Source: a plasmid
Length of the DNA: 33,413 bases
Sequence record: NZ_CP019031.1
Strand: one strand, 5' to 3'
The stretch's first letter is position 1. Each line of letters opens with the position of its first letter. Both the position numbers and the translations under genes were made by a program. Of this stretch, positions 15,115 through 22,219 are shown piece by piece. The notes beneath the pieces are model-generated. The model was not told the DNA's origin, ran no database searches, and was given only the letters and a program-made list of their open reading frames with translations.

Positions 15115-15473
15115 CGCTTGGTCATGCAGTAAATTACCTGTATAATAGATTAAGCAAGAAGTTTTAAGGGCGATGGCTGTCTTTTCCCTTGTGAGGTGAG
15201 GCCCATGGGAACATGGAATAATCTTCAGGAAGGTTTCACAGTCGATGAGCGTCTTCCAGACACTCTCGTTGATGTTGCTGTTTGGCACGTTTTTGATCGC
15301 GCTCCTCAGCTATATCGACAAGCACCACAAATAAAAAAGCCGCCCTGTGTAACTTTGGCAGGTTACAGGACGACTAGTATCTAGTCTAATGTTAATGCCA
15401 CCGCCTTTGAAGCGGCTTGCGCGGGAAGTCCTGTTCTAGCGGGGCTTCCCTTTTTCTGTCTACATTATAGCAT
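15115..15473 (+). repeat. Direct repeat copy 1. It contains a promoter, a 62-aa ORF and an intrinsic terminator.
   Basis: About 95% identical to 21860-22219. -35 TTGGTC (15118), 17-nt spacer, -10 TATAAT (15141). ORF 15196-15384. Terminator GGGAAG...CTTCCC plus T5 at 15423-15456. Confidence 0.8.
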
Positions 15474-15676
15474 GACTATAACTGATTTTCGACTATTTTT
15501 AATCAGCTTCCTAGCAGCTTATGGGGAACATACGTTTGATAACTACGCTAATACTAGTGATATCACTATTGACGGTTGGTGAAGTTAGTGTGAAATTTTC
15601 TATAAGAATATGGTAATATAAGGGCATGTGATAATCTTTAGTATTGCGCATAGAAAACAAAGAAGGAGGTAACAGT

Positions 15677-18600
15677 ATGAGTAATAAATCCAGGCATCGT
15701 CGACTTTTATTTATGATGGGACTAGTCTTATTTTCGTTATTAGGGTCAATATGGATATCATCTAATAGTGGTATGACCGTATATGCTGATAGCAAGACAA
15801 ATATTACTCAGAACGGTACGGGGTCCGGGACTGTTATTAATCAACAGGAAGAACCGCAGATAAGTACCGTTAATAGTAATACCACAGATAATACTAGTTC
15901 TTCGGACGATCAGACGTCTCAGAAGCAAGTTACTAATACAGAAGCACAACCGAGAGCACCAACTAACAATAATCAACCAGTTCAGGAGGACCGTAATTAT
16001 ATAAGTAATAGTCAATACTCAACTTCTAATGGTGGGGCTAATACTAATCAGGGCCCATCAGTTAATAGTATTTCTAAGAGTAATAGTTCCCCATCTGCAT
16101 ATAATAAAGGAACTAGCGTTGATATTACTATTAGCAATCCCCAATTAACCACTAATAGTATTGAAGGACGCTTTGCCACTGAATTTAAATTCGATTTCTC
16201 AGTTCCAGATTCAGCCAAATCTGGGGATACAACAACTATTTCATTACCGGATCAGTTAGATTTCCAACGATCTCAGAAGTTTAATATTTATGCACTTGAT
16301 GGCAAAACTGTTGTAGCTACAGCAGTTATCGATAAGCCCAGTAGATCACTTGTTCTGACCTACACCGATTACGTTGATTCACATGACTCAATAAGTGGCC
16401 ATATTGATATGCAAGTAACGGCCGCTACAAGTGAAATTAATAAAGAAGAGACCATACCGGCGGAAATCAAGATTAATGGGCACACCGTTACGATTGATAG
16501 TTCTGGTATAAAACACAGACCTTCCAAGGGTGATACAGCAACAGACTTTTGGAAGTACGGATATGTTGATTATGACAATAACAAGAATGAAATTGTCTAT
16601 CACGTCAACATTAACGCATCTATGCAAAGTGTCAGTAATGTAGTCATCTCTGATAGTTTGGCTTCAAATGGTTTTTCTTATGTGCCCGGAAGTTTTTCTA
16701 TTTCTAAAGGGAATTGGGAAAGAAATTCTGAGAACTATTGGACATTGAGCAATCCACAAGATGTGACAAGCCAATATAACATTGATATTAATTCAAGCAA
16801 TAGTGCTTATACAGTGAAATTGGGCAATATATCTGAGGGTTATGCAATTGTCTACCGGGTTAAGTCAAACCATCCATTACTTAATGGCGAACTGGTCGAG
16901 AATGATGTTAGCTATAAATCTAATAAGAAGGTAATAAACAGTTCTATAAATAGAGTTCTTTACCAAGAGGCTAATGGCAAAGCTAATGGATATAATTATA
17001 GTTTAACTATAAATAAAGAGGATGAATCTGGAGCCCCACTTGCAAATGCTGTTTTTTCTGTTATTCGCAAGTCAACTAATGGGGTTGTTGGAACCATAAC
17101 TACTGGTCCTGATGGTAAAGGAACAATATATGGTCTTCTAAAAGATGATTATATTATACGTGAAACTTCGGCTCCATCGGGATACACATTGGCTAAAGAT
17201 GTTATTGTTTCAGCTGATAGTTTCGACTCTAAGGGAGCAACAGCAACGATCACAGATAAGAAAGCTGTTACCACCGTTTCAGGTACAAAGACTTGGAAAG
17301 ATAATGATGATCAAGACGGCAAGCGCCCTGATTCAATCAAGGTAAACTTATTAGCTAATGGTAAGGTTGTTCAGAGTAAGACAGTGAAGGCATCAGACAA
17401 CTGGAAGTACAGCTTCACTAACTTACCTGAATTTGAAAATGGTAAGAAGATTACCTACACAGTTATGGAAGACGCAGTTGCGGGGTACACAAGTACTATC
17501 GATGGTTACAACATAACTAACAACCACACTCCTGCCACCGTCAAGGTATCCGGAACCAAGACTTGGAACGATAACAACAATCAAGATGGAATCCGCCCAA
17601 GTTCAATCACAGTGAACTTATTGGCCAATGGTCAACAAGTCGCAAGTAAGACGGTAAGCGCTAGTGATAACTGGCAGTACAGTTTTGACAACCTAGCTGC
17701 TTATGCTAATGGTCAAAAGATTACCTACACAGTTACGGAAGATGCAGTTGCGGGGTACACAAGTACTGTTGATGGTTACAACGTAACCAACAACCACACT
17801 CCTGCCACCGTCAAGGTATCTGGAGCCAAGACTTGGAACGATAACAACAATCAAGATGGAATTCGCCCAAGTTCAATCACAGTGAACTTATTGGCCAATG
17901 GTCAACAAGTCGCAAGTAAGACGGTAAGCGCTAGTGATAACTGGCAGTACAGTTTTGACAACCTAGCTGCTTATGCTAATGGTCAAAAGATTACCTACAC
18001 AGTTACGGAAGACGCAGTTGCGGGGTACACAAGTACTGTTGATGGTTACAACGTAACCAACAACCACACTCCTGCCACTGTTAAGGTATCCGGAACCAAG
18101 ACTTGGAAGGATAACAACAATCAAGATGGAATCCGCCCAAGTTCAATCACCGTGAACTTATTGGCCAATGGTCAACAAGTCGCAAGTAAGACGGTAAGCG
18201 CTAGTGATAACTGGCAATATAGTTTTGACAACCTAGCTGCTTATGCTAATGGTCAAAAGATTACCTACACAGTTACGGAAGATGCAGTTGCGGGGTACAC
18301 AAGTACTGTTGATGGTTACAACGTAACCAACAACCACACTCCTGCCACCGTCAAGGTATCCGGAACCAAGACTTGGAACGATAACAACAATCAAGATGGA
18401 ATTCGCCCAAGTTCAATCACAGTGAACTTATTGGCCAATGGTCAACAAGTCGCAAGCAAGACGGTTAGTGCTAGTGATAACTGGCAATACAGTTTCGACA
18501 ACTTAGCCGCTTACGCTAATGGTCAGAAGATTACCTACACGGTAACGGAAAATGCAGTTGCGGGGTACACAAGTACTGTTGATGGTTACAATATTACTAA

Positions 18601-18847
18601 TACCCATAATCCGACAACACCTAAGAAGCCCCAGGTTCCTAATAACCCGACAACGCCTAAGAAGCCTCAAGTTCCTAATAATGGGAATAAGGTAACACCA
18701 AAGGCTTACACTCAAGGTAAAACCTACGAAAAAACAGGTAAATTACCTCAAACAGGTAATGAATCATCAATGGGTATGATGTTAATTGGACTAGTGACGT
18801 TATTGCTAAGCTTGGGTTTAGTAGTTATAAATAGATTTACTATTTGA
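15677..18847 (+). CDS. Sortase-anchored collagen-binding MSCRAMM-type adhesin, 1057 aa, with five Cna-B-type repeats.
   Basis: GGAGG RBS. Signal peptide, then a Ser/Thr/Asn-rich region, then an A-domain with Cna-like collagen-binding-domain features. Five 90-aa B-type repeats (GTKTWNDNNNQDGIRPSSITVNLLANGQQV...KITYTVTEDAVAGYTST). A PTTPKKPQVPNN x2 motif. LPQTG followed by a hydrophobic segment and a basic tail. Confidence 0.85.
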   Translation: MSNKSRHRRLLFMMGLVLFSLLGSIWISSNSGMTVYADSKTNITQNGTGSGTVINQQEEPQISTVNSNTTDNTSSSDDQTSQKQVTNTEAQPRAPTNNNQPVQEDRNYISNSQYSTSNGGANTNQGPSVNSISKSNSSPSAYNKGTSVDITISNPQLTTNSIEGRFATEFKFDFSVPDSAKSGDTTTISLPDQLDFQRSQKFNIYALDGKTVVATAVIDKPSRSLVLTYTDYVDSHDSISGHIDMQVTAATSEINKEETIPAEIKINGHTVTIDSSGIKHRPSKGDTATDFWKYGYVDYDNNKNEIVYHVNINASMQSVSNVVISDSLASNGFSYVPGSFSISKGNWERNSENYWTLSNPQDVTSQYNIDINSSNSAYTVKLGNISEGYAIVYRVKSNHPLLNGELVENDVSYKSNKKVINSSINRVLYQEANGKANGYNYSLTINKEDESGAPLANAVFSVIRKSTNGVVGTITTGPDGKGTIYGLLKDDYIIRETSAPSGYTLAKDVIVSADSFDSKGATATITDKKAVTTVSGTKTWKDNDDQDGKRPDSIKVNLLANGKVVQSKTVKASDNWKYSFTNLPEFENGKKITYTVMEDAVAGYTSTIDGYNITNNHTPATVKVSGTKTWNDNNNQDGIRPSSITVNLLANGQQVASKTVSASDNWQYSFDNLAAYANGQKITYTVTEDAVAGYTSTVDGYNVTNNHTPATVKVSGAKTWNDNNNQDGIRPSSITVNLLANGQQVASKTVSASDNWQYSFDNLAAYANGQKITYTVTEDAVAGYTSTVDGYNVTNNHTPATVKVSGTKTWKDNNNQDGIRPSSITVNLLANGQQVASKTVSASDNWQYSFDNLAAYANGQKITYTVTEDAVAGYTSTVDGYNVTNNHTPATVKVSGTKTWNDNNNQDGIRPSSITVNLLANGQQVASKTVSASDNWQYSFDNLAAYANGQKITYTVTENAVAGYTSTVDGYNITNTHNPTTPKKPQVPNNPTTPKKPQVPNNGNKVTPKAYTQGKTYEKTGKLPQTGNESSMGMMLIGLVTLLLSLGLVVINRFTI
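17261..18610 (+). repeat. Five 270-bp tandem repeats inside the adhesin gene.
   Basis: Unit boundaries at 17261, 17531, 17801, 18071 and 18341. Copies 2-5 are nearly identical at the nucleotide level. Copy 1 is divergent. Confidence 0.85.
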
Positions 18848-18932: not shown

Positions 18933-18986
18933 AAAAATAGCGGGCGACCAACGCAATTTTCTGCGTTAGTCGCCCGCTTTAGTTTC
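18933..18986. terminator. Bidirectional intrinsic terminator between the convergent adhesin and immunity genes.
   Basis: AGCGGGCGAC ... GTCGCCCGCT: a 10-bp GC-rich stem with A-run and T-run flanks. Confidence 0.6.
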
Positions 18987-19138
18987 TCTATTAAACACGA
19001 CACATGGCCTGAATTTCTGGAGCCCCCGGTAAATAAGCCTCAATATCTGGCGTGTTACGTTGCGTGTTAACAACCGTTAGTAATGGTTAAAAAACCTAAG
19101 GGGTATTGTACGAGAGGGCTTGCTACTTATTTCATTTC

Positions 19139-19642
19139 TTATGAGTTCATATACCAAAATTCGCTACCGTTTGTTAGTAAATAATTATTCAACCATTCAG
19201 TAAAGCCAATGTGGAAATATTTATTTAATTCATCAGGATATAATAAATAATCTTCTTGGTTTTCATATCGTTCCAAATTAAGTATTAGTTGACCGATATC
19301 TTGTAGTTCTAGAATTGGGAGAAGTTTATCCCACTCCGGGTAAAATCCTGAGCTTCTTAAAAATTCTCGCCAATGTAATACTTCTTGAATCGAATAGATT
19401 TTACATTTTTGGATATACTTTCCATCAGTAAATAACTCTGCACCATTTATTTGACTTATAAAGGCTAAATAATCGTTGGGAAGAGAGTAATTAATTTTAT
19501 CAAACTTTTTTAAATCAGCCTGAGTTGCTTTAGCTTTTAATCGAAAACCAACATTCATTGGTAAAGATCCAGAAACATAAATTTTATAGTCACTAACTTG
19601 AGACATTGTTTTGAGAGAATTTACAATTGAATCTATTTCCAT
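19139..19642 (-). CDS. SUKH (SMI1/KNR4)-family immunity protein, 167 aa.
   Basis: YSLPNDYLAFISQINGAELF matches the SUKH-1 LPxDYxxFLxxxNGG signature. AAGGTG RBS. It starts 12 nt after the upstream toxin-domain gene. Confidence 0.55.
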   Translation of the reverse strand: MEIDSIVNSLKTMSQVSDYKIYVSGSLPMNVGFRLKAKATQADLKKFDKINYSLPNDYLAFISQINGAELFTDGKYIQKCKIYSIQEVLHWREFLRSSGFYPEWDKLLPILELQDIGQLILNLERYENQEDYLLYPDELNKYFHIGFTEWLNNYLLTNGSEFWYMNS

Positions 19643-19654
19643 ATATTTAGCACC

Positions 19655-20020
19655 TTAATAGTTTCTAAACCAACTTGTTATTAAATAATGATTTGCATTG
19701 GGAACAGGGAGTAAATTATTAAAATCATCTGTACCATCATAAATTCTTGGACGAATATGATGAATTTGTCGAACAGACCACCAATCAGCAGATTGAGTAC
19801 CATAAGTAGCATTAAATTGATTAATAAAAGCTTGGCGTCCATTCCAACTAGGAGACTGACCTAGCCGAGTCCAATCTGTTCTAAGCGGAGACTCTGCATC
19901 TTTATGCGAGACTGGATCAACATATTCTGGAAAATTCTGGGCTAATTTATTTTGTAATTCAATAGGTCCTTGAGTTATGGGATAAAAAGCAACATTCCCC
20001 GAAGTAGACTTTAAAGACAT
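19655..20020 (-). CDS. Stand-alone HNH/EndoVII-fold nuclease toxin domain of the xHH ([AGS]HH-like) type, 121 aa.
   Basis: QIHHIRPRIYDG...DDFNNLLPVPNANHYL shows an HH dyad, a central Asn and a distal His in ββα-Me spacing. In-frame stops lie upstream. Weak RBS. It looks like an orphan C-terminal toxin module. Confidence 0.45.
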   Translation of the reverse strand: MSLKSTSGNVAFYPITQGPIELQNKLAQNFPEYVDPVSHKDAESPLRTDWTRLGQSPSWNGRQAFINQFNATYGTQSADWWSVRQIHHIRPRIYDGTDDFNNLLPVPNANHYLITSWFRNY

Positions 20021-20172
20021 CCAGTTTATTTAATTTTACCATTTGTACAATCCCAAACCAGATCGTATTAGCCTTTGCGCTTGCCGTTGGTTTTGTGAAC
20101 AGACTTATTCTTTCGCACCAGCGTTCTTGATTGTTTCCTCGATTAACTAGTCGGCTTTGTGTTTCTAGGGCG

Positions 20173-21522
20173 TTAGCTTTTCACAACCGGGGTCTTAAAA
20201 AGATCATTCAAGGCTTCAGACATTGTTGGATGAGTATAGATCATGTCGCGTAATCTTTCGTAAGGTAATTTGGCCTTCATTGCCAATGCAATTAGATTGA
20301 TGGTTTCATGAGCCTCAGCGGCATACAATGTTGCCCCCAAAATAAGGTGTGTTTTTTGATCAACGATTACCTTATAAAGCCCGCGTTGATCCTCCAAGAC
20401 CCGGGCCTTTGGAATCGCCTTAACTGATAGCTTGAAAGTTTGAAAGTTATAACCTGCACTCTTGGCCTGACGTTCATTTAAGCCAACGTTGGCCAGTGGT
20501 GGATTTAGGAACGAAGCAGTCGGTATCACCATTCGATCAGCCGTTGAGCGATCCCCCTTACCAAACAATTGATCTATGATAATACGAAAATCATCCAATG
20601 AGACATAAGTGAACATAGGACCACCATTAACGTCCCCTAAAGCCCAAATGTTTTGTACTGTGGTTCTTAAATGATCATCGACCTGAATAGCACCGCGATT
20701 GGTTAAAGCAATATCAGTATTTTCTAGTCCTAAACTACTTACATTAGGCCGCCGACCGACTGCAACTAATAACGCATCAAATTCTGCAGTGTTAGTTTGA
20801 TCACCTTGTTGATAATATAATGTAACCTTCTCACCATTATCTTTTACTTGAGTTAGTTGAGTCTCCAGTTTAATCTCGATCCCTGCGTTAGTCAGATCTG
20901 TTACGACCTCGGTCGCAATATCAGGATCTTCGCGCTCTAACAATCTGGTATGTTGGTCGAAAATCGTTACATGTGTACCAAAGGAATTAAACATTCCAGC
21001 AAATTCAAGGCCAATATAACCGCCGCCAATAATTGCTAGTCGTTTCGGTTGTTTCTTCAATTCCATAGCTTCTTTAGACGTAAAAATCCGCTGACCGAAT
21101 TCTAGCCCTGGGATTGATGGCCAATTTGGAACCGCTCCAGTATTAATGAAGATGCGTTCACCTCTCACCTTCTTAGTTGTTCCATCACTCATTACGACTG
21201 CCAAAACATAATTGTCGATAAAACGGGCTGACCCATTCCAAACCGTTGCTAGTGGCTCATCAGCCACCATGTGATAGTTTTTGTCTCGCAACTGTCTGGT
21301 CATCTCACCACGCTTATTAACTGCCGTAGTAAAGTCTAAGCCACGTTGACCATTTAAAATTAAATTTTTAGATGGTAGGCAGCCAACATTGATGCAAGTT
21401 CCTCCGTACATTTGTTTAGACCGTTCGATCAGAAGCACGGTCTCATCATGCTGCGCCAAGTACTTAGCTAATGTCTTACCCGCCTTACCAAATCCAATAA
21501 TAATATTTTTAAATTTATCCAT
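20173..21522 (-). CDS. Class I FAD-dependent pyridine-nucleotide-disulfide oxidoreductase, 449 aa.
   Basis: GFGKAGK FAD-binding motif. Redox-active GGTCINVGCLPSK. A second dinucleotide-binding motif IIGGGYIGLE. C-terminal dimerisation-domain His/Pro region. Confidence 0.8.
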   Translation of the reverse strand: MDKFKNIIIGFGKAGKTLAKYLAQHDETVLLIERSKQMYGGTCINVGCLPSKNLILNGQRGLDFTTAVNKRGEMTRQLRDKNYHMVADEPLATVWNGSARFIDNYVLAVVMSDGTTKKVRGERIFINTGAVPNWPSIPGLEFGQRIFTSKEAMELKKQPKRLAIIGGGYIGLEFAGMFNSFGTHVTIFDQHTRLLEREDPDIATEVVTDLTNAGIEIKLETQLTQVKDNGEKVTLYYQQGDQTNTAEFDALLVAVGRRPNVSSLGLENTDIALTNRGAIQVDDHLRTTVQNIWALGDVNGGPMFTYVSLDDFRIIIDQLFGKGDRSTADRMVIPTASFLNPPLANVGLNERQAKSAGYNFQTFKLSVKAIPKARVLEDQRGLYKVIVDQKTHLILGATLYAAEAHETINLIALAMKAKLPYERLRDMIYTHPTMSEALNDLFKTPVVKS

Positions 21523-21859: not shown

Positions 21860-22219
21860 TCTTGGTTGATTTTTAATTTCCTTGTATAATGGATTGAGCA
21901 AGAAGTTTTAAGGGCGGTGGCTGTCTTTTCCCTTGTGAGGTGAGGCCCATGGGAACATGGAATAATCTTCAGGAAGGTTTCACAGTCGATGAGCGTCTTC
22001 CAGACACTCTCGTTGATGTTGCTGTTTGGCACGTTTTTAATCGCGCTCCTCAGCTATATCGACAAGCACCACAAATAAAAAAGCCGCCCTGCGTAACTTT
22101 GGTCGGTTACAGGGCGACAATGTAGTTTTGTAATCTAGGCCACCGCCTTTGAAGCGGCTTGCACGGGAAGTCCTGTTTTCGGCGGGGCTTCCTTTTTCTG
22201 TTTATATTATAGCATGACC
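21860..22219 (+). repeat. Direct repeat copy 2, with a promoter, a 61-aa ORF and a terminator.
   Basis: -35 TTGGTT (21862), 17-nt spacer, -10 TATAAT (21885). ORF 21940-22125. Terminator at 22165-22197. Most of the differences from copy 1 cluster in the final 60 bp. Confidence 0.8.

Follow-up and report, generated by a model that had tools for sequence, protein, structure and literature searches.

A putative orphan SUKH immunity gene with the remnant of an HNH toxin gene on the conjugative plasmid pLU4

The stretch of DNA analysed here (sequence record NZ_CP019031.1; 33,413 nucleotides (nt), hereafter the window) corresponds almost in full to pLU4, a 33.4-kb plasmid of Limosilactobacillus reuteri LU4 (NZ_KM063576.1; 99.9% identity). 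On its minus strand lie, one directly behind the other, an open reading frame (ORF) of 121 amino acids (aa) at 19655-20020 and a gene for a 167-aa protein at 19139-19642. The first is a 5'-truncated remnant of the gene for a 305-aa Sec-secreted HNH toxin, and the second is an intact immunity gene of the SUKH-1 (SMI1/KNR4) family; both were brought to the plasmid lineage by one insertion, and the toxin remnant has since been broken repeatedly in sister plasmids. With a probability of roughly 55%, we read the locus as an orphan immunity gene that still carries the dying stub of its toxin gene. An earlier reading of the same letters, called here the original prediction, had seen a toxin-tip nuclease and a SUKH immunity gene detached from any full-length toxin, and this core is supported by the comparisons below. 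An orphan immunity gene beside a toxin remnant is a known phenomenon, of which this is a fresh example, and both genes had already been annotated at family level, in RefSeq as "HNH endonuclease signature motif containing protein" (121 aa) and "SMI1/KNR4 family protein" (167 aa). The pLU4 locus alone is thus a small remnant; of more interest are two by-products of its analysis, namely the architecture of the parent toxin and the spread of the immunity gene across genera on conjugative plasmids.

The toxin domain, its immunity protein and the parent toxin

The assignment of the 167-aa protein as a SUKH-1 immunity protein is supported by a profile match and by a conserved pairing with a toxin gene. 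Against the Pfam model SMI1_KNR4 (SUKH-1, PF09346), the protein scores 37.1 bits with a cut-off of 25.4 bits (E = 5.4e-9), as the original prediction had expected of such a search. The match spans positions 2-124 of the 125 in the profile, and PF09346 is also recorded on cluster relatives of the protein. The motif LPNDYLAFISQINGAELF can be read directly in its sequence. The SUKH gene is located directly 3' of the toxin gene and on the same strand in the window, in the L. salivarius UCC118 plasmid pSF118-44 and in a plasmid of L. reuteri LL7. In the window, 12 nt separate the toxin stop codon from the ATG of the immunity gene, and a Shine-Dalgarno sequence AAGGTG (19651-19656, minus strand) overlaps the toxin stop (19655-19657) and lies 8 nt before this ATG. 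The 12-nt gap and the AAGGTG had been listed in the original prediction together with the two ORFs, the SUKH motif, an HNH-like pattern, in-frame stops upstream and a weak ribosome-binding site, and all of these can be read from the sequence. An anti-phage reading of the pair was dropped after PADLOC returned nothing for the toxin and a negligible match for the immunity protein.

Recognition of the 121-aa protein depends on its family. The motifs IHHIRP, NNLLPVP and NH are visible by eye, and the HNH catalytic core occupies 19688-19762 on the minus strand (H87-H88, 19757-19762; N102, 19715-19717; H111, 19688-19690). Scans of this single sequence against Pfam and NCBIfam gave only sub-threshold matches to HNH and IscB; Pfam HNH (PF01844) reached 15.9 bits, short of its gathering cut-off of 21.4 bits. 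The domain family was assembled by a full HMMER scan of 1.84 billion cluster representatives, which gave 209 relatives at E <= 1e-3, and the matched stretch is the extreme C-terminus in virtually all of them. Pfam HNH matches 39 of 40 aligned family members at E <= 0.1 (best, 1.4e-5) and 38 of 83 members at E <= 1e-3. Seven residues, N24, P31, H88, P91, N102, H111 and W117, are invariant among the 40 aligned C-terminal domains, and H87, G95, G96 and L103 are conserved in at least 90% of them; by this alignment, the catalytic residues H87, H88, N102 and H111 are all retained in the window copy. The family consensus, [ED][IV]HHIRPRxYGGTNDFxNLxPxPxxxH, is a classical HNH motif. When compared with solved HNH domains, the family profile matches Cas8f-HNH (E = 9e-6), a group II intron maturase (3.6e-4) and an Rhs toxin (4e-3), and weakly pyocin AP41 and colicin E7 (E 0.03-0.1). 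The catalytic residues align to those of Cas8f-HNH, maturase HNH, IscB, pyocin AP41 and colicin E7. Judged from the family profile rather than from the single sequence, the 121-aa domain is a classical HNH (His-Me finger) variant and would act as a nuclease. The original prediction had expected a match among the AHH, GHH, SHH or HNH families, and only the HNH superfamily, at family level, stood. None of the Pfam families AHH, GHH, SHH, LHH and WHH matched the window protein (E <= 1) or the 40 relatives (E <= 0.1), and the Pfam families appearing among these relatives at E <= 0.1 are only HNH, HNH_2, HNH_4, HNH_5 and Endonuclea_NS_2. Because the SUKH-1 match lies above its cut-off and the toxin domain has 209 relatives and matches HNH at family level, neither gene is a chance ORF.

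The proteins that end in this domain differ widely in their N-terminal parts, which are Sec signal peptides, RHS repeats with or without PT-HINT, or PT-TG. The same toxin domain is fused to a WXG100-like (WXG100_2) domain of type VII secretion systems (T7SSs) in one relative (P0171), and a distant relative (P0087) carries Peptidase_S8. Most of the relatives that are about 300 aa long have a Sec-type signal peptide; a simple heuristic finds one in 59 of the 89 relatives of at least 230 aa. Given these varied trafficking and pre-toxin modules, the HNH domain is a true polymorphic-toxin domain. The full-length toxins anticipated by the original prediction thus do exist, as Sec-signal proteins of about 300 aa, as RHS/PT-HINT proteins and as a WXG100-like fusion, but the LXG type that it had also named was not found among 83 mid-length relatives.

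On pSF118-44 the parent gene is intact: its 305-aa product has this domain (about 99% nucleotide identity) at the C-terminus, and the same immunity gene follows. A 179-kb plasmid of L. reuteri LL7 likewise holds a 918-nt (305-aa) gene upstream of an SMI1/KNR4 gene. The immunity gene begins 12 nt after the toxin gene in the intact parent module. The 305-aa toxin starts with a typical signal peptide (MKNKRYLNKILLTAILVLFGSCISVKA/DINS), from which a linker leads to a domain of about 110 aa, and its C-terminal 117 residues are shared with the window ORF; residues 5-121 of the latter are residues 189-305 of the full-length toxin. In a tblastn search, residues 188-305 of the full-length protein P0160 align to 20011-19658 of the window at 97.5% identity. 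Relatives at 44-60% identity (loci L006, L008 and L009) again have a toxin of about 300 aa and, encoded directly after it, a small protein of 155-168 aa, which is a SUKH protein in two of the three loci checked. This parent architecture, in which a Sec signal peptide, an Ig-like beta-sandwich and a classical HNH domain are followed by a SUKH gene, is an uncharacterised one, and no account of the toxin-immunity module was found in the literature on pLU4, pSF118-44 and plca36.

The middle domain of the parent toxin (about 110 aa, residues ~98-203 of P0160) is modelled as an all-beta Ig-like sandwich in a predicted structure. It is conserved, has no Pfam model and contains the motif DSIxGxxP, whose Gly is near-invariant. 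Most relatives with a Sec signal have it in front of the HNH domain, across Lactobacillaceae, Streptococcus-like and Clostridium-like sequences. The domain is a candidate receptor-binding or translocation module. Some of the "full-length" toxins of L. salivarius bear in-frame deletions. P0162 (266 aa; 27 member sequences) is short of about 39 residues where the toxin domain begins, among them the invariant N24 and P31, and P0161 (269 aa) has lost part of the N-terminal linker. From these sequences, the toxin may be decaying in some producer lineages too.

Insertion of the fragment and the fate of its two genes

The foreign fragment of about 915 bp (19096-20010) contains the immunity gene in full, with about 45 bp beyond it and, in front of it, the 3' end of the toxin gene. 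Homology of the window to pSF118-44 (98.9%) is confined to 19092-20010. In cassette-less plasmids of L. parabuchneri, L. paracasei, L. plantarum and L. rhamnosus, 19099 is joined straight to 20011 with no target bases missing. Since these empty-site plasmids are contiguous across the junction, the fragment of about 915 bp was inserted. The insertion site is the intergenic region between the gene cbp for an LPXTG collagen-binding adhesin (15644-18847, plus strand) and a gene for an FAD-dependent oxidoreductase (20173-21522, minus strand), which lies about 150 bp upstream of the cassette. The GC content of the insert is 32.6%, and that of the plasmid is 40%. Similarity at the junctions is limited to about 5 bp and is imperfect (CCTAA / CTTTAA against CTTAA in the target). 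The ends of the insert show neither terminal inverted repeats nor a clean target duplication, and no transposase is encoded within 19096-20010, so that a transposable element was rejected as the vehicle. The little similarity at the junctions and the lack of terminal inverted repeats point to illegitimate recombination.

In the 305-aa protein, the right junction corresponds to residue 188/189, which is inside the beta-sandwich; the toxin domain proper starts at about residue 206. The plasmid flank (20011-20020, minus strand; ATG at 20018-20020) contributes the M-S-L codons together with the first base of K4, as seen in the alignment across the junction at 20010/20011. An in-frame TAA stands four codons 5' of this ATG, and there is no usable Shine-Dalgarno sequence before it (the sequence reads AAACTGG-ATG). 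With the signal peptide and most of the beta-sandwich missing, no delivery or secretion module is found in the 121-aa ORF. The position of the ATG is occupied by ACG in all four junction-matched empty-site plasmids. This difference was rejected as a sign of start-codon selection: the filled copies represent one event, and their lineage differs from the empty one at other places nearby. The 121-aa ORF is, judging from these alignments, an accidental 5' truncation and not a designed cassette, which refines the original prediction. No other toxin-like or immunity-like sequence was found within the window. Two metagenome proteins, P0009 and P0012, are chimeric ORFs in which unrelated N-termini are placed on different parts of the toxin stub. 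One of these N-termini has a P-loop motif, the other is hydrophobic and membrane-protein-like, and the former resembles the start of a zeta-toxin/AAA kinase. They suggest further independent rearrangements around the fragment, or assembly chimeras.

The fates of the two genes were compared in nine truncated copies, on plasmids descended from the one insertion. Three independent nonsense mutations have arisen in the stub, K40* in plca36, Q68* in pMWLp-12A and W50* in pLPCDM001A, and the plca36 stub also has the catalytic substitution H88Y. Further 5' deletions are found in pLBF347 and pLTR1318, and the stub is thus disrupted in five of the nine copies. In the other four, those of pLU4 and three sister plasmids, it is uninterrupted and keeps every catalytic residue. 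The pLU4 copy carries G95D inside the HNH core (19736-19738, minus strand), at the Gly conserved in at least 90% of relatives; this substitution is peculiar to the window copy among the 10 loci compared. The allele is common and not a sequencing error, because the exact D95 stub protein is found on 127 contigs. The metagenome proteins P0007, P0008 and P0010 are additional, frameshifted stubs. The immunity ORF, on the other hand, is full-length (167 aa) in eight of the nine copies and is cut by IS256 in the remaining one. In three plasmids its product is identical to WP_011241750.1, the partner of the full-length toxin of UCC118, and this exact sequence occurs on at least 1000 contigs; the pLU4 protein differs from it at two residues (N18D and S139L). 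Substitutions are about 2.3 times denser in the stub (14 in 2799 nt) than in the immunity gene (9 in 4207 nt). Nonsense changes make up three of about 15-18 stub substitutions, where about 5% would be expected (binomial p ~0.04-0.06). With so few substitutions available, tests for selection are underpowered and their statistics only suggestive; the sequence comparison itself shows a stub that decays while the immunity ORF is mostly kept.

Possible roles of the locus

In the history that we favour, the parent was a two-gene module of a Sec-secreted HNH toxin and a SUKH-1 protein, as seen intact on the L. salivarius and L. reuteri plasmids. A low-GC piece of 915 bp, with the last 117 toxin codons and the whole immunity gene, entered the conjugative rep_cluster_707 lineage, presumably by illegitimate recombination, and has since reached Limosilactobacillus, Lacticaseibacillus, Lactiplantibacillus and Lactobacillus. 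Having neither signal peptide nor delivery domain, and starting at an ATG borrowed from the flank, the stub can no longer give rise to an exported weapon and is undergoing inactivation. The immunity gene has kept its own ribosome-binding site. No terminator was predicted between the oxidoreductase gene and the cassette, which leaves this gene as the one evident origin of transcripts that would reach the cassette, and the immunity gene is most likely expressed by read-through from it. A 131-bp piece that pLU4 is missing there has no predicted minus-strand terminator either. The SUKH protein would bind and block the full-length HNH toxin of L. salivarius-type competitors, once this had entered the target cell, and the protection would apply in shared oral, gut and dairy niches. 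Precedents for such a role are available. Isolated SUKH genes were proposed as immunity to non-self toxins (Zhang et al., 2011; PMC3113570), and in Bacteroidales, orphan SUKH immunity proteins were shown experimentally to protect against a WHH (HNH-fold) effector (bioRxiv 10.1101/2025.05.03.651265). If immunity works in this way, conjugative plasmids spread resistance to an L. salivarius nuclease toxin over at least four other genera of Lactobacillaceae. Their hosts live in the human mouth, the gut and fermented foods, and L. salivarius includes the probiotic strain UCC118, so that the process would bear on competition among probiotic and food strains. The orphan-immunity "defence islands" of Bacteroidales would then have a counterpart on plasmids of Gram-positive bacteria.

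Several results weigh against this reading. A dedicated promoter of the immunity gene was not identified, promoter-like matches being at chance level. The difference in ORF disruption between the stub (5/9) and the immunity gene (1/9) is not significant (Fisher p = 0.13). The few changes that the immunity gene has undergone, 6 nonsynonymous and 3 synonymous, are indistinguishable from neutral drift, truncated or disrupted immunity variants occur in metagenomes, and both N18D and S139L are private to the pLU4 copy. Predicted structures of the HNH region have low confidence (pLDDT 31-48; a second model has a mean of 56.6), and the modelled fold is only weakly supportive. Toxin activity, uptake of a Sec-released protein by Gram-positive cells and neutralisation by the SUKH protein are proposals made for this toxin family from sequence.

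The main rival is that the 915-bp fragment is an inert hitch-hiker, neither gene being usefully expressed and the immunity ORF being intact only through recency. With at least 98% identity among all copies, the insertion event is young. The fragment has come without its native promoter, for which no significant replacement is predicted, the 6:3 ratio is close to the neutral expectation, IS256 and the metagenome truncations have damaged immunity genes as well, and the contrast in disruption between the two genes falls short of significance. We nevertheless consider a purely neutral fragment unlikely, for the stub has about 2.3 times the substitution density of the immunity gene, all five ORF-killing events other than the IS insertion hit the stub, which is the smaller of the two, plasmids of several genera encode exactly the immunity protein that is the cognate one in L. 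salivarius, and between the cassette and the oxidoreductase gene 5' of it no terminator is predicted. The original prediction had offered three roles, an immunity island, an addiction module and a donor for toxin-tip replacement, and it is the orphan immunity gene that fits best. In an addiction module, a cytoplasmic 121-aa nuclease would be restrained by the SUKH protein, and loss of the plasmid would kill or arrest the cell. Indeed, the ORF is open with a complete set of catalytic residues in four plasmids, the two genes are translationally close and carried by a conjugative plasmid, and the excess of nonsense mutations together with H88Y could reflect selection against a leaky harmful product. 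This role is nonetheless weakened by the repeated inactivation of the stub in sister plasmids: five of the nine have lost it and yet persist, so the two genes are not kept intact jointly (the partner is intact in 8/9). The ORF starts at an accidental ATG without a usable ribosome-binding site, pLU4 has G95D at a conserved Gly, the SUKH protein shows no sign of lability, and the plasmid already has dedicated toxin-antitoxin loci, so that we regard addiction as distinctly improbable. A variant holds that the freed HNH domain and the SUKH protein are a plasmid-stabilising toxin-antitoxin pair that is only now arising, with low-level cytoplasmic stub made from the accidental ATG. The nonsense and catalytic mutations of sister plasmids and G95D of pLU4 would then be the footprint of selection taming toxicity; we give this variant slightly less credit still.

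Orphan cdiA-CT/cdiI or rhs-CT modules recombine into full-length toxin genes, and the pLU4 pair could similarly be a silent donor cassette, a reservoir from which recombination into a full-length toxin gene changes the toxin/immunity type of the host. A toxin tip and an immunity gene without the N-terminal part do resemble such orphan modules, and the many different N-terminal parts joined to the domain make it truly polymorphic. The plasmid, however, holds no full-length toxin or other toxin-related sequence. The fragment breaks off within the beta-sandwich and not at a conserved pre-toxin junction, and the about 15 residues left in front of the toxin domain provide no homology arm for replacement of a tip. 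Full-length relatives were not seen alongside the cassette in its host genera, and the stub is decaying. Lacking both a full-length toxin on the plasmid and upstream homology, the donor role is without support, and we consider it very improbable indeed.

Relation to known systems and surroundings of the cassette

Orphan toxin-tip/immunity modules are known from contact-dependent inhibition (CDI) and Rhs systems. As in these orphans and in the rAID/AID clusters, an immunity gene is kept on pLU4 without a working cognate toxin, and a 5'-truncated toxin fragment lies just upstream. The orphan immunity genes of Bacteroidales are, like the pLU4 gene, borne by mobile elements and common to species of one niche, and the similarity extends to the pairing of a SUKH-fold immunity protein with an HNH-fold nuclease (bioRxiv 10.1101/2025.05.03.651265). 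Unlike the Bacteroidales rAID/AID clusters, the pLU4 locus belongs to Gram-positive Lactobacillaceae and is a single gene, not an array. Its carrier is a conjugative plasmid, whereas known orphan systems are found in chromosomal arrays or recombinase-associated islands. Its parent toxin is Sec-secreted and not delivered by a type VI secretion system, CDI or T7SS, and its truncation point is arbitrary, within a domain. Protection has been demonstrated for the Bacteroidales orphans, whereas the pLU4 locus is known from sequence.

The parent module is similar in plan to the SUKH-associated HNH/EndoVII toxins (PMC3113570; PMC3482391), which also have a C-terminal HNH-fold nuclease with many trafficking modules, a SUKH-1 gene immediately 3' and a strain-variable presence. 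It departs from them in that the pLU4 domain is outside the named Pfam toxin HNH families, its motif being [ED][IV]HHIRPR-YGGTN-NL-P-H, and in that the pair is plasmid-borne, while 99.25% of the systems recovered by Zhang et al. (2011; PMC3113570) were chromosomal. Colicins E7 and E9 with Im7 and Im9, and pyocin AP41, likewise combine an HNH DNase killing domain with a small immunity gene next to it and a plasmid location, and the order of domains is comparable, a receptor or delivery region being followed by the nuclease. In contrast to colicins and pyocins, there is no lysis gene, release would depend on a Sec signal peptide, the immunity protein has a SUKH rather than an Im fold, and the hosts are Gram-positive; in the window, moreover, only the immunity half is intact. 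In Gram-positive bacteria, S8-PTS comprises a signal peptide, the BetaH domain (a seven-stranded sheet around a C-terminal helix), a toxin (including an "XHH" HNH type), an immunity gene and an S8 peptidase (Li, Tan and Zhang, 2022; PMC9424270). The parent toxin is similar in having a Sec signal peptide, a following domain of about 110-120 aa and a C-terminal toxin, and Peptidase_S8 does occur in the distant relative P0087. Its middle domain is modelled as an Ig-like sandwich and not as BetaH, and no S8 peptidase gene is annotated beside the full-length loci examined (pSF118-44 and the LL7 plasmid). The full-length toxin was therefore not placed in the S8-PTS/BetaH class, which neither the modelled fold nor the gene neighbourhood fits.

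The original prediction had also put the pair on a conjugative plasmid and in an adhesin island, and this context was borne out: pLU4 is typed as conjugative (MOBQ, MPF_T, rep_cluster_707), and cbp is the neighbouring gene. Downstream of the immunity gene, the plasmid flank contains a terminator-like hairpin (18939-18978, minus strand; 18 pairs, of which 11 are GC, followed by a T-run). The dedicated toxin-antitoxin loci of pLU4 are a RelB/DinJ antitoxin locus and two RatA type I loci. The latter are two direct repeats of about 350 bp (15130-15476 and 21874-22218; sub-blocks 96% and 88% identical). Each repeat encodes a 29-aa "holin-like toxin" ORF on the plus strand (RefSeq WP_021353390.1 in both) and a convergent RatA antitoxin RNA (Rfam RF01776) at 15378-15467 (57.8 bits) and 22119-22209 (52.7 bits), respectively, both above the gathering score of 49. 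They flank a segment of 6.4 kb composed of cbp, the cassette and the oxidoreductase gene, and homologous recombination between them could delete or transfer this segment.

An insertion hot spot lies beside the cassette (19067-19091; compare 1506-2531 of the cassette-bearing locus L004). At least six of the sister plasmids have, in place of 19068-19090, a segment of 1026 bp with a nicotinamide riboside transporter gene (pnuC), which is absent from pLU4 and from the empty-site plasmids. The 131 bp that are missing from pLU4 at 20124, between the oxidoreductase stop codon and the cassette, are present both in the cassette-bearing L004 (3566-3695) and in the empty-site locus L005 (4359-4488). Finally, cbp contains five tandem repeats of 270 nt (17276-18655; 67-79% identity to the first copy), which encode CnaB-type units of the adhesin, and the number of these repeats seems to vary among sister plasmids, since the annotated Cna B-type proteins differ in length.

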